Source of the DNA: a virus
Taxonomy: Duplodnaviria > Caudoviricetes
DNA: 64,000 nucleotides
Direction: 5' to 3' (one strand)
Virus record (IMG/VR): IMGVR_UViG_3300001487_000106
Span: 1-64,000 of that record
Part shown: positions 54,393 through 57,970 of the stretch, piece after piece
How positions within the stretch are numbered: the first letter of the stretch is position 1
How the letters are laid out: each line of letters starts with the position of its first letter
Translations under genes and position numbers: made by a program
Notes under the pieces: model-generated
What the model saw: only the letters and a program-made list of their open reading frames with translations
What the model was told of the DNA's origin: nothing
Databases searched by the model: none

Positions 54393-55331
54393 GTGTATAA
54401 TATGTATATTGATAAAAATACTAAAAATAAAACATTTCAGAATATGTTTTATGAACTACAGGATAAAGGAGTAAACTATGTTGGTTCATCAGAAATACTC
54501 AAAACTGAGAATAAATCGTTACTAAATTTTGATTATCAAAATATGCCAGAATCAGACCCAATATCTGGACGAAGTTATTATGATATGATTCTATCAGAAT
54601 GTAAAAAAAATATATGGTTTTTCTTTAGAGAGATTGTACGTATACCAATTATAGGGCAAGATAGTACGTATGATCATTCAATGCAGTTTCCTCTAAATAA
54701 AACGTCATTACTCATGATTTGGTGTTACGAAAATAAGATACCTTTTTTTGTAGTTGGTGATACAAAGAAATCAGAAATGCGAATCGTAACGCTACAGTTA
54801 CTTTGTCTTTATGATTTTTTGTTTCATTATAACAGTACACCATATATGCACATCATAACCGATGAAAATGATGTTGTAAATCATCTTAGTGATCTACAGG
54901 ATGATTTTGAAACATATTCAAGCATTAATAGCGCTGTAATACCAAGACTACTTACTATGAATTTCTATCACGCTGTTACTGCAGGAAATATAAATAAATC
55001 TTTATCTTGTGGGATTGACAATATCAATTTTAAAAATGATGATGAGACAAAATATTTTGGAAACTATTTTGGATTCTCTGTGGGTAAAAACAAACATCTT
55101 TGTAAGATTTTAAGTACACTTAAGAAAACTATGCCAAATGATACTCATATAGCATTTGAAGCTAATATTCATGATATATGCGATAGTGATATTGGATATT
55201 ATATTCTTGATTTGATGCCTAAGATTACAACTGAATATATATCAAAAGAAGACGATGGTGAAAAGTTTACACATCAGCATTTTATTCAGAATCATTTGAG
55301 AAATAGTATATGTGTGATAATTGATGAATAG
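54393..55331 (+). CDS. Degenerate paralog of the terminase large subunit N-terminal region
   Basis: ILSECKKNIWFFFREIVRIP vs IMTECMRNPWYYLREISRIP; no Walker A. Confidence 0.65.
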   Translation: MYNMYIDKNTKNKTFQNMFYELQDKGVNYVGSSEILKTENKSLLNFDYQNMPESDPISGRSYYDMILSECKKNIWFFFREIVRIPIIGQDSTYDHSMQFPLNKTSLLMIWCYENKIPFFVVGDTKKSEMRIVTLQLLCLYDFLFHYNSTPYMHIITDENDVVNHLSDLQDDFETYSSINSAVIPRLLTMNFYHAVTAGNINKSLSCGIDNINFKNDDETKYFGNYFGFSVGKNKHLCKILSTLKKTMPNDTHIAFEANIHDICDSDIGYYILDLMPKITTEYISKEDDGEKFTHQHFIQNHLRNSICVIIDE

Positions 55332-55471
55332 AACAAAATTATAAAAAGTACCTCCGAAGTTTTATCTTCATATTTAAACGATACGAATGGACTGACATAC
55401 CATTCGTATCGTTTATTTTTTAAGCATGAATACTTTATTATAATCAATATTTTTTGAAAGGAGAAAAAAAT

Positions 55472-57203
55472 ATGGCTAAATCTCGTATTGCAAGAATAGG
55501 TGATAAGTTATATGACTTAGGAACACAGAATAGGTCATTTTTACAGGTTGCAAAAGATTTACAAACAGTTGGAATCAAAAATTGCTATTTTATGCTTGAA
55601 ATATATGATTATAGTTTGGTAAATATTGACCCGTTTTCTGTTGGACCCGATGGCCATACTAATTTAACACAAGATCAAATAACTAGAATTATGACAGAAT
55701 GTATGAGAAATCCTTGGTATTATCTTCGTGAAATATCTAGAATTCCTGATCCAGGTGGTACTGCTGTGCCATATAAGGCAAATAGGGGTAATATTGCACA
55801 GGCATGGTGTATTTTACATGGTTTAGACTCATGGTTAAATTTAACACGTCAACAAGGTAAAACACAGTCAGCAATTGCTATGGAAACATGGATGTACTCA
55901 TTTGGTACTTCGCAATCTCAATTTATATATATAAATAAATCGGGTGAAGATAGTAAAACAAATCTTAAGAGAACTGGTGACCAAATAAGATTTTTACCTG
56001 AATATTTAAGATTTGAATCATTTACTGATGATGATGGCAAGGTTACAAAAGCAACTAATAATGCTACAAAAATGGGACATCCTATAAATGGTAATACTAT
56101 TATTACTAAAGCTAAAGCAACATCATATGATACTGCATTATCATTGGCTAGAGGTCTTACATCGCCAATACAACATTTTGATGAGGCTGAGTTTACACCT
56201 CATATAAAAACTATAGTAGCAAACTCGGTATCTACATATGAAACTGCAGCAGCTAGAGCTAAAGCGAATGGTGCTATGTATGCTCGTATATTTACTAGCA
56301 CACCTGGAGATCTTGATTCACCTGCTGGTCAAGAGGCACAGGAAATTTTAGATAAGACTGCTAAATGGACCGAACGTCTTTATGATATGACTGAAGAAGA
56401 AATACAGGAATACATAGATTCACAAGGTAAAGATTGTAACAAGATTCTTTATATAGAATATCAGTATTATCAAATAGGATTAACTGAAGATTGGTTAAAA
56501 AATATATCTGCTAAAATTGGAGATCCCTTAACAGTAAGACGTGAAATACTACTTCAAAGATTACACGGTTCATCACTTTCTCCATTTAATCAAGAAGATA
56601 TTCAATATCTTATTGAGATTGCTCATAAACCAATAGATGAAATGTGGTTACTTGAATATTATAGATTTGATATATACAAAAAACTTAATCCACGTATAAC
56701 TTATCTTATCGGCGTCGACTGTTCAACGGGAACTAACGGAGATAATAATGCTATTACAATATTGAATCCATATACGTTAGAAGTGGAAGCTGAATTTGAA
56801 TGTTCATATATTGGTGAAACAAAATTTGAAGCATTACTTATAGAACTAATAGGTATTTTACCTAGAGCAGTATTATGTATCGAAAGAAATAGTGTTGGTG
56901 ATTCCATTATAGACCATCTTCTTAATAGTAAAATACGTGCAAATCTTTATTATGATAGAGCTAAAGATTTAGTTGAAGATAATGCTATAGCATCTGGTAC
57001 TATTGAATCTATGCTTAAAAAACAAGCATCAATGAAATCATATTATGGAGTCTATACAGGTACTAAATCTCGTGAAGATATGATGGCTATTCTAGTAAGA
57101 CATGTCCAAGAATATAAAGAAAAATTTATTACTCAAAACATAACAAGAGATATATCAAGATTGATAAGAACATCATCTGGTAAAATTGAGGCAGGACCCG
57201 GTT
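55472..57203 (+). CDS. terL: Terminase large subunit, exon 1
   Basis: Walker A TRQQGKT, Walker B HFDEAEF, TSTPG, nuclease IGVDCS and IERNSVG; RBS GAAAGGAG. Confidence 0.93.
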
Positions 57204-57572
57204 CAAAAAATCAAAAATTAAAAAGCATTCATCATGAGGACCGGGATAAACTCCTTTAATTGCGGGGAACTCTCGTTAGGTCTTAACTACTAAACTAATA
57301 TTTATATTAGTGGCGAAGGGTAACTCCTTAGGTATAGTAAAAAGGTTAAGAATAGAGACAATCCGCAGCCAAGGCTCTTATTAAGAGCAAGGTTCAACGA
57401 CTATCGAAAGCATAGCTTAAGAGAAATACTTAAGTAAAGAAGTGAGTAGAGTAGTGCCTATTTATAGGTTAGTTTTATGGTGATATTAGCCATAAGTAAT
57501 TCTATTAAAACGAAATGGGGAGCTCTTCATATTTGGTAATAGAATATGAAGATGATGATATAGTCTATATTG
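57204..57572 (+). mobile_element. Group I intron (IA-like, 369 nt, no homing endonuclease)
   Basis: P AATTGCGGGG (57258), Q AATCCGCAGC (57360), R GTTCAACGACTA (57392), S GATATAGTCT (57557); P1 with U57203.G57239; 10-bp P10; terminal G57572; splicing restores GPG-F-HDD. Confidence 0.92.
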
Positions 57573-57970
57573 TTCATGATGACTCTGTAATGAGCTATCT
57601 AATGTGCCTTTATGTTTATTATCATGGTAATAATCTCCCTGTATTTGGAATTATTAAAGGTAAATTAAACGAAGATGAACAAAATAAAGGATTGAAACAT
57701 GCCTCTGAAATCGATCCATCATTAGTTGATCCTAGGTTGATAGAGTCTGTAAAAAAACAAGAGCAACAGATAGCTCAACAGGAACAATGGAAACAGTTAA
57801 TGAAAGAGGCTGCTATTAAAGCACAGAAAGATACGTATAAACTGGTAAAAGCTGGTGAAATTCAAAACACGGTTTATAATAACACACCTGGAGAAATAAT
57901 CGAACAGATGGACGATGATACAAATGGTTCTATAGATTTGAGCTTTTTCAATAGTATAAACGGATTTTAA
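57573..57970 (+). CDS. terL: Terminase large subunit, exon 2
   Basis: Supplies the nuclease HDD motif in frame; spliced product is 709 aa. Confidence 0.9.

Follow-up and report, generated by a model that had tools for sequence, protein, structure and literature searches.

Can a group I intron without a P9 hairpin rejoin the two halves of an essential gene, and what would then position its 3' splice site? P9 is a peripheral element outside the catalytic core, and group I introns are regarded as having both this hairpin and the contact of its loop with a helix of P5 almost without exception. The question is raised by a 64,000-nucleotide stretch of DNA (hereafter, the window; positions 1 to 64,000 of IMG/VR record IMGVR_UViG_3300001487_000106) from an uncultured giant rumen phage, in which positions 57204 to 57572 split terL, the DNA-packaging gene that is essential for tailed phages. 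This segment is an IA2-like phage group I intron that lacks P9, and we consider it probable that it works and splices in the manner proposed below.

Architecture of the split terL gene

Both exons of the gene are intact:

55472..57203, + strand: terL exon 1, 577 codons plus the first base of a Phe codon (open reading frame call)
57573..57970, + strand: terL exon 2, 132 codons, completed by U57203, plus the stop codon

The product of exon 1, which is identical to the first 577 aa of the protein P0126, matched the terminase large subunit in PHROG (E = 6.6e-45), and that of exon 2 is identical to residues 579 to 709 of P0001. Pfam searches with both exons and P0001, and a phmmer search of the PDB with the terL protein, gave no match. 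A profile of the exon-1 family reached phage T4 gp17 (E = 5e-6); since this match ends before the HDD motif, HDD is only presumptively the third catalytic acidic motif of the terL nuclease. The intron and the exon strands that pair with it are composed of the following parts:

57204..57572, + strand: group I intron, 369 nt, no open reading frame (ORF); RF00028, 48.5 bits, E = 3.5e-11; boundaries from uninterrupted alleles
57197..57203, + strand: 5' strand of P1 (CCCGGTT), with the 5' splice site after U57203; seven pairs with 57239-57245
57204..57228, + strand: what is left of L1 after deletion of an HNH endonuclease gene, by comparison with L001, L002, and L181
57229..57238, + strand: P10 guide, 10 contiguous pairs with exon positions 57573-57582; recovered by RNAalifold
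57239..57245, + strand: 3' strand of P1 (internal guide sequence; GACCGGG), with G57239 opposite U57203 (U.G)
57246..57250, + strand: J1/3 (ATAAA), 5 nt between P1 and P3; no P2
57251..57256 / 57517-57522, + strand: P3; RNAalifold, compensatory changes
57261..57393, + strand: P4-P6 domain, with P4 at 57261-57266 / 57362-57367 and P6/P6a at 57368-57393
57271-57274 / 57355-57358, + strand: P5, with the extension P5a, P5b, and P5c (57271-57358)
57397..57403, + strand: 5' strand of P7 with bulged C57398, pairing with 57561-57566; invariant in all relatives
57415-57421 / 57429-57435, + strand: P7.1; RNAalifold
57445-57452 / 57499-57506, + strand: P7.2, branched, with two inner hairpins; RNAalifold
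57524..57552, + strand: P8 hairpin; RNAalifold and single-sequence fold
57561..57566, + strand: 3' strand of P7, pairing with 57397-57403
57567..57572, + strand: linker of 5 nt, then omega-G (G57572); too short for P9 or P9.0
57573-57582, + strand: 3' strand of P10, the first 10 nt of terL exon 2

An earlier reading of the bare letters (the sequence-only reading) had described an intron here without P9 and P2, whose splice sites are set by P1, P10, and the restored F-HDD motif. This observation agrees with the sequence: the placements of P1, P10, and omega-G are exact, the P5 and P7.1/P7.2 extensions (57271-57358 and 57415-57506) are present, and there is support for the view that this is a natural group I intron whose 3' end is minimal and which has no P2. 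Its distance of 7 nt from the 3' strand of P7 to the 3' splice site was counted from 57566 and included omega-G; the strand occupies 57561-57566 and is followed by 5 nt, and the absence of P9 stands. P2 is likewise missing, only ATAAA separating P1 from P3, but this is not unusual. P2 is optional in several group I subgroups, every relative at this site is without it, and in the polA intron of phage A5W, as its sequence reads, P1 also leads directly to P3; its absence is thus ordinary for this intron lineage.

Across relatives, P1 co-varies with the exon, the 5-nt J1/3 is identical in 24 aligned introns, and P8 has compensatory changes at all six of its pairs. Relative to L033, a diverged intron at the same site, there are three compensatory pairs in the inner hairpins of P7.2, and an A-U pair of P10 is replaced by G-C. 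G57399-C57565 is presumed to be the guanosine-binding pair because of the group I consensus. The tails of L001, L002, and L181 are identical to that of the window, and those of other relatives are 5 to 12 nt long with no conserved sequence; a by-eye search recovered no pairing partner for the 5-nt tail in L1 or elsewhere. The exon-1 frame continues for 18 codons into the intron, across the guide sequence and the 5' strand of P3, until a TAA at 57257-57259, so ribosomes reading past the 5' splice site could disturb the folding of the intron.

Model score, fold, and class membership

The search with group I models that the sequence-only reading had suggested bore out the assignment in that RF00028 of Rfam aligned from end to end (48.5 bits; E = 3.5e-11 in a local search and 2.8e-9 against the window as a whole), although the score lies 1.5 bits below the gathering score of 50 and there is no match in gathering mode. 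In this alignment, the P2 positions are deleted and the P9 columns land on the first exon letters without a loop, which is a forced alignment. The single-sequence minimum free energy fold (z = -2.67; 0/100 shuffles fold as well) recovers P1, P4-P6, P7.1, and P8. Thus, of the features that define group I introns, we found P1 with its U.G pair, omega-G, P10, and a P3-P8 core with the P3/P7 pseudoknot, but neither a P9 hairpin after the 3' strand of P7 nor P2. The P7.1/P7.2 insertion between P7 and the 3' strand of P3 is that of subgroup IA2, whose extended 3' domain (P9.0, P9, P9.1, and P9.2) is absent. The intron-encoded homing endonuclease of mobile introns is also missing, there being no ORF in the window's intron.

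Splice junction and homing-cycle alleles

G57572 is the sole G that restores the frame together with the U.G 5' site. The uninterrupted 709-aa alleles P0001, P0124, and P0129 (at least 99% identical) carry GPG-F-HDD straight across the junction, the homologues P0002 and P0003 have the same junction, and more distant homologues read GPG-F/W-HDD. In a contig from run X15, just two letters separate 57201 from 57573, and the encoded peptide is the same; the final codon of exon 1 differs synonymously there, the library is flagged as probably DNA, and the contig represents an intron-less allele, not a spliced transcript. No RNA spanning the junction was found among the Logan contigs; those of X17, the RNA run of the source sample, cover only 56915-57101. 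The contigs of X17, X18, and X1 do not join the two splice sites, a result that speaks neither for nor against splicing, and the stretch that X1 leaves uncovered (57603-57970) proves nothing. The suggestion that splicing gates packaging was unsupported; it would be trivially true wherever an intron interrupts an essential gene, and the analysis turned up no regulatory feature.

A single 90% protein cluster includes three states of the gene: intron-less (P0001, P0124, and P0129), with an ORF-less intron (the read-through product P0126, which equals the window's ORF at 595/595 residues), and endonuclease bearing (P0127/L001/L002). In L001, L002, and L181, L1 contains about 820 nt more, coding for a 268-aa HNH_3 protein (PF13392; 29.2 bits in L001 and L002), and the remaining intron is nearly identical. 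The window's ORF-less allele is recorded on only two contigs; other ORF-less P9-less introns occur in L033, L006, L125, and L185, and 12 truncated terL homologues (581 to 610 aa) were found among the 120 proteins listed.

Presence and absence of P9 at the terL insertion site

Relatives were gathered by related-locus searches and DNA pattern scans, which gave 24 distinct cores at this site: 12 with tails of 5 to 12 nt and no P9, 11 with a GNRA-capped P9 hairpin, and 1 with a 5-bp mini-hairpin. Comparison with same-site introns of relatives, also proposed by the sequence-only reading, therefore finds the P9-less tail in 12 distinct introns. The P9-bearing ones (L037, L038, L039, L046, L173-L177, L184, L192, and L193) share with the window's intron the insertion between GPG and F-HDD, J1/3, a homologous core, and the lack of P2, and differ from it in a 7-bp P9 with a GNRA loop and in their mostly shorter P10s. 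In a core tree inferred with the trait columns removed, the P9-less state needs three changes on the best tree, but when only the well-supported branches are counted, a single change of P9 state is enough, and repeated loss is therefore unproven.

The P9-less cores are under selection and retain the canonical fold by compensatory changes. On a hand-curated structure with eight rows (seven P9-less introns and L188), 20 of 68 pairs have changed on both sides and 93.8% of 535 cells are paired, with 0/500 shuffles reaching either value; slid controls gave only 29 to 42% paired cells and 2 to 7 pairs changed on both sides. Among the three subsets on which RNAalifold was run, that of the window's intron, L001, and L033 had 8 of 102 pairs compensated, one of them in P10, a count that understates compensation because MAFFT misaligns P5a, P6a, and P8 of L033.

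The P10 duplex has a median energy of -12.3 kcal/mol in the P9-less introns (n = 12; range, -7.5 to -16.7) versus -6.4 kcal/mol in those with P9 (n = 11; range, -1.6 to -12.7), with a one-sided Mann-Whitney p of 0.0004 that treats related sequences without correction for relatedness. The idea that a long P10 accompanies the missing P9 hence fits the comparative data in that 12/12 P9-less introns have a strong P10, but it is not exclusive to them, as three P9-bearing introns also have a 9-bp P10 (-9.8 to -12.7 kcal/mol).

Two other candidate compensators were rejected. The P5 extension is not a general one, since the compact introns L178 (about 175 nt from the guide sequence to omega-G in a 204-nt extract) and L185 have neither it nor P9, and the branched P7.2 is also carried by a P9-bearing sibling intron in the RNAP gene.

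Proposed splicing mechanism and alternative explanations

The ancestor would have been a mobile intron with an HNH homing endonuclease gene in L1, which would have been deleted in this phage, leaving the ribozyme. Guanosine would attack after U57203, held by the U.G pair in the 7-bp P1; omega-G (G57572), only 5 nt from P7, would move into the guanosine site, and the unusually long 10-bp P10 would align the 3' exon, with exon joining restoring GPG-F-HDD. Within this lineage, P9 is an optional module. P10, which begins right after omega-G, may take over the positioning of the 3' splice site, and a ring of P5 and P7.1/P7.2 extensions may hold the core together. The data establish the anatomy, the junction, the recurrence, and the structural selection; that the intron splices in vivo, that it does so unaided, and that P10 compensates for P9 is inferred. 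A bolder form of the proposal, which we offer tentatively and with some doubt, is that the 3' exon is a structural part of the ribozyme, that a P10 of 8 to 13 bp after an omega-G about 5 nt from P7 replaces both P9.0 and P9, that P9 was lost more than once, including in compact cores such as L178, and that the intron self-splices without P2 or P9. If so, this would be a natural minimal group I architecture in which the 3' domain of the intron is completed only by the exon.

The same anatomy might instead belong to a ribozyme that is not autonomous and needs a phage or host protein (maturase-like or an RNA chaperone) or a trans-acting RNA for folding or for the second step. This is rather unlikely in our estimate. 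In its favor, self-splicing of the window's intron is a prediction from sequence, near-identical phages have an intron-encoded HNH protein that the window's intron lacks, and degenerate group I introns are on record in fungal rDNA. In work on a trans-spliced intron of Prasinoderma, moreover, P9 was counted among the essential paired regions, and the lack of it was read as a sign of external factors (PMC3873408). On the other hand, the ORF-less P9-less introns of this phage and four relatives have been maintained with no protein encoded in them, their core is complete and highly conserved, and an unsystematic look turned up neither a candidate helper gene nor a complementary RNA.

That the intron is a decaying, splicing-defective remnant, with the losses of the endonuclease and P9 marking an allele on its way out and the genome being dead or a rare variant, is improbable. 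The window's allele has indeed parted with its former endonuclease gene, it coexists with intron-less alleles, and its two contigs make it scarce, but it lies in an essential gene with intact exons, an identical P9-less 3' end is found in endonuclease-bearing and presumably mobile copies, the P9-less introns at the site have undergone compensatory evolution in P3, P5, P6, P8, and P10, and the assembled genome has a depth of about 60-fold in the likely source run. We give very little credence to an artefact, in which P9 was lost by collapse during assembly, or the supposed exon conceals P9 because the real 3' splice site is farther downstream. The sample contains the intron core more than once, contigs of the source run break within it, and the Rfam alignment places P9 over the exon as described above; however, the loopless "P9" there is forced, three other assemblies (L001, L002, and L181) have identical 3' ends, diverged relatives are also short-tailed, and, starting with the F of F-HDD, every residue encoded by exon 2 has its match in the uninterrupted proteins, so that no exon sequence is spare for a hidden P9. 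The artefact is already contradicted by these data.

Relationship to known introns

Positions 57246-57403, encompassing P4-P6 and the P5 extension, are 73 to 76% identical to the introns of Staphylococcus Kayvirus polA (phage K/A5W; carrying I-KsaIII) and of SPO1-like Bacillus phages. Like the window's intron, these contain P7.1/P7.2 between P7 and the 3' strand of P3 in a P3-P8 core, and they share with the window's lineage HNH homing endonucleases and insertion at a catalytic motif of an essential gene. In contrast, the A5W polA intron has clear P9/P9.1/P9.2 hairpins, with about 110 nt after the 3' strand of P7 as opposed to the 5 nt before omega-G in the window, and the endonuclease gene of the window's lineage lies in L1, not downstream of P7. 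T4 td/nrdB/sunY and Twort orf142-I2 are also phage introns of the IA2 type. In the same genome, outside the window, the RNAP intron (G000:C1, ~83717-85572) is 86% identical from the 5' to the 3' strand of P7, including the branched P7.2, and has no P2 and an 8-bp P10. It also has a P9 stem of about 25 bp enclosing a 376-aa HNH_3 gene and a further 9-bp hairpin before omega-G, neither of which is present in the window's intron; this P9-bearing sibling makes the loss of P9 specific to the terL lineage.

Mini-ribozymes truncated at the 3' end, derived from sunY (T4 nrdD) and attributed to Xu and Shub in 1989 and to Doudna and Szostak in 1989, reportedly remain catalytic with an IA2 core and no 3' domain; they are laboratory constructs, whereas the window's is a natural intron that needs to ligate the exons of an essential gene. 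The mitochondrial Pa.rnl.1 of Prasinoderma coloniale is a natural trans-spliced group I intron modeled without P9, and its authors suspect that a third piece is missing or that external factors take part (PMC3873408). It is organellar and of subgroup IB, unlike the window's, which is cis-spliced in one piece and is found again in many genomes. The gut "Jug" jumbo phages have many small group I introns, with metatranscriptomes supporting the splicing of 37 of 76 predicted (PMC12880540), and Bastillevirinae have terL introns in 5 of 52 genes (PMC11878797). Like the window's, these are short introns in terL or other essential genes of large phages, and the main-text passages on them make no mention of P9 absence (PMC12880540, PMC11878797). 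In a literature search with thin coverage of subscription journals, classic group I catalogues, and supplements, only the Prasinoderma and degenerate fungal cases were found for natural P9-less, minimal, or degenerate introns, and no published description of P9-less terL introns was found.

The terL site offers a natural comparison, in which related introns at one insertion point occur with or without P9, the P5 extension, and the endonuclease gene, and such side-by-side introns allow the role of P9 in folding and 3' splice-site choice, and that of a long P10 as its substitute, to be tested. Natural ribozymes this compact, with neither P2 nor P9, are also candidate scaffolds for RNA engineering. 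At this site, the Rfam threshold detects 9/10 P9-bearing introns versus 0/10 P9-less or mini-P9 introns, the window's own being missed as well; because P9-less introns escape it, split essential genes of large phages will be mis-annotated as truncated.

The terL intron and its splice sites

The terL gene of this uncultured giant rumen phage is made up of two ORFs (55454 to 57259 and 57515 to 57970) with a group I ribozyme between them, the ORF-less intron itself occupying 57204 to 57572 (plus strand, 369 nt). Exon 1 matched two sets of terminase large subunits in PHROG (E = 6.6e-45 and 2.8e-29), and a profile of its homologues recovered T4 gp17 (E = 5e-6) in a match covering the Walker A region and nuclease acidic motifs one and two. 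Scanning the whole window with Rfam RF00028 returned this intron as the sole group I match, in a full-length alignment on 57210 to 57585 (48.5 bits; E = 3.5e-11 in a local search and 2.8e-9 for the whole window); as the score lies 1.5 bits below the gathering score, a default scan of the window comes back empty.

The helices by which the sequence-only reading had placed the splice sites are present: P1 (57197 to 57203 with 57239 to 57245, U57203 facing G57239), an unusually long P10 (57229 to 57238 with 57573 to 57582, ten contiguous pairs), and omega-G at G57572. The junction is independently borne out by two kinds of intron-less sequence. Three uninterrupted 709-aa alleles (terL proteins P0001, P0124, and P0129, from one 90%-identity protein cluster) read ...EAGPG-F-HDDSVMSYL..., with GPG-W/F-HDD in more distant terL homologues, and in sequencing run X15 a 745-nt contig passes from 57201 to 57573 over two intervening letters, giving the same peptide. 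The final exon 1 codon of this contig has a synonymous difference from the window's at its wobble base, and the contig hence represents an intron-less allele, not spliced RNA. The differing base is P1 paired in the intron-bearing allele; the difference is the usual exon/guide coadaptation or a homing-site difference.

Anatomy of an intron without P9 and P2

The structure was mapped with RNAalifold (window and two nearest relatives) and a single-sequence fold, the latter with z = -2.67 and equal stability in 0 of 100 shuffles.

Helices of the terL intron (plus strand; all from RNAalifold and the single-sequence fold)
57251-57256 / 57517-57522, P3
57261-57266 / 57362-57367, P4
57271-57274 / 57355-57358, P5, with a three-part extension
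57368-57393, P6/P6a, whole element
57397, 57399-57403 / 57561-57566, P7, with C57398 bulged
57415-57421 / 57429-57435, P7.1
57445-57452 / 57499-57506, P7.2, branched, with two inner hairpins
57524-57534 / 57542-57552, P8

The map contains the P5 and P7.1/P7.2 extensions that had been proposed, and it confirms a terL group I intron lacking both P9 and P2. Only five nucleotides (57246 to 57250) join P1 to P3, leaving no P2, and five more (57567 to 57571) separate the last P7 pair from omega-G, so that neither P9 nor P9.0 is possible. Correspondingly, the Rfam alignment deletes the P2 positions and forces those of P9, loopless, onto the first exon letters.

Recurrence of P9-less introns at the terL site

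In tblastn searches with P0001, 14 of 80 viral loci were interrupted at residue 577/579. A DNA pattern over P7' and the exon picked out 11 introns at the terL site in the 80 viral loci listed, and a longer one recovered 21 metagenome records, in all of which the intron sits at the terL site. Once duplicates and fragments had been removed, the alignment comprised 24 distinct cores. Twelve are P9-less (the window, L001, L033, L006, L014, L051, L125, L183, L191, L182, L178, and L185, the L-handles denoting related viral contigs or metagenome records), with 5 to 12 nt of nonconserved sequence from P7' to omega-G. In eleven, a 7-bp P9 is closed by GAAA or GAGA, and in the metagenome record L188 a 5-bp hairpin (7-nt loop) runs right up to omega-G, a tail intermediate between the two forms. 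The P9-less cores range from large ones with a P5 extension to very compact ones without it, such as L185 (281 nt in total) and L178 (guide sequence to omega-G about 175 nt, by a count on a 204-nt extract). In a maximum-likelihood core tree from which the columns of the tail, P9, guide, and exon were dropped, the P9 state has to change three times, the well-supported branches alone requiring only one change. At the Rfam gathering score, the terL-site intron is detected in 9 of 10 P9-bearing loci (L193 being missed) and in 0 of 10 P9-less or mini-hairpin loci, the window's own also being missed.

The closest known introns are those of Staphylococcus Kayvirus polA (I-KsaIII) and SPO1-like Bacillus phages, which are 73 to 76% identical from P3 to P7. 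As read from its sequence, the A5W phage intron likewise runs from P1 to P3 without P2 but, unlike the window's, continues beyond P7' with P9-type hairpins that span about 110 nt. Thus, the loss of P2, previously regarded as unusual, is ordinary in this lineage and is shared by all 24 cores; the distinctive trait is the missing P9. In the searchable literature, the only natural intron so described is a trans-spliced Prasinoderma mitochondrial one, which is termed very unusual, P9 being termed essential (PMC3873408). Many small terL introns are reported in Bastillevirinae (PMC11878797) and Jug jumbo phages (PMC12880540), and the accessible parts of both reports make no mention of P9 for them.

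Structural selection and splicing

We scored a canonical group I structure, with P10 and the P7 pseudoknot among its helices, on an eight-sequence alignment of one P9-less sublineage (seven P9-less introns and L188). Standard pairs fill 93.8% of 535 cells (29 to 42% for slid structures), and in 20 of 68 pairs both partners have changed (2 to 7 for slid structures); neither figure was matched by any of 500 shuffles. In the window and its two nearest relatives, 8 of 102 predicted pairs are compensated, one of them a P10 pair tracking a synonymous change of a His codon in the exon; the figure is 33 of 73 for the P9-bearing group with L185. A tailed phage cannot do without TerL, and neither exon is disrupted in the window, so that a nonsplicing intron should not persist across diverged genomes. 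These patterns show structural selection on the P9-less introns and suggest, indirectly, that they splice. The further proposal that splicing gates packaging is unsupported, leaving the earlier interpretation as a whole partly supported.

What might replace P9

A long P10 had been suggested to compensate for the missing P9. Duplex energies, obtained by pairing the 15 nt that precede the guide G with the opening 13 nucleotides of the exon, have a median of -12.3 kcal/mol (range, -7.5 to -16.7) in the 12 P9-less introns versus -6.4 kcal/mol (range, -1.6 to -12.7) in the 11 P9-bearing ones (one-sided Mann-Whitney p = 0.0004, which is overstated, as the sequences are related). The trend agrees with the suggestion without proving it, and a 9-bp P10 likewise occurs in three P9-bearing introns; compensation by P10 is plausible from these comparisons. 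Engineered 3'-truncated sunY ribozymes are reportedly active. As a general compensator, the P5 extension is excluded by L178 and L185, which lack it, and the branched P7.2 by its presence in a P9-bearing sibling intron in an RNA polymerase gene of the same phage genome (G000:C1, about 83717 to 85572, outside the window; L194, 118 to 1973). Between P7 and P7' this sibling shares 86% identity with the terL intron; it has an 8-bp P10, no P2, a P9 stem of about 25 bp enclosing a 376-aa HNH_3/NUMOD4 gene, and a further 9-bp hairpin. It interrupts a beta'-like gene just 5' of LNADFDGD.

Allele states and the homing cycle

L001 and L002, viral contigs from different samples with terL 99% identical to the window's, and the metagenome record L181 carry this intron with no difference at its 3' end, showing that the missing P9 is not an artifact. 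In all three, loop L1 is about 820 nt longer, and the 268-aa protein that the insert encodes has an HNH_3 domain (PF13392, 29.2 bits; cutoff, 24.8); its last codons pass through the guide sequence to a TAA in J3/4. The window copy is accordingly a clean deletion derivative: its exon 1 frame (57203 to 57259) reads 18 intron codons to the former stop of the endonuclease gene. Two recorded contigs, the longer measuring 253,895 nt, encode the read-through product (P0126, 595 aa). One protein cluster contains intronless, endonuclease-bearing, and ORF-less alleles, the usual states of a homing cycle. The window's exon 1 frame crosses the guide sequence and the 5' strand of P3, and in the ORF-less relative L033 (5217 to 5471) it stays open for 84 codons, past P7.1; ribosomes entering the ribozyme core could interfere with folding.

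The terL genes of relatives are an intron hot spot, with tblastn breaks near residues 127, 234 to 238, 275 to 279, and 577. A single terL gene has four interruptions in L037 to L039, and Rfam group I introns number four in the L037, L039, L173, and L184 loci and five in L038. Directly 5' of the window's terL, a 312-aa ORF (54393 to 55331, plus strand) resembles terminase large subunit PHROGs over their N-terminal part (phrog_32359, E = 8.4e-10; phrog_2, E = 3.6e-7); with similar weak second matches 5' of terL in L001, L002, L003, and L057 (tblastn), it appears to be a partial, conserved paralogue of terL.
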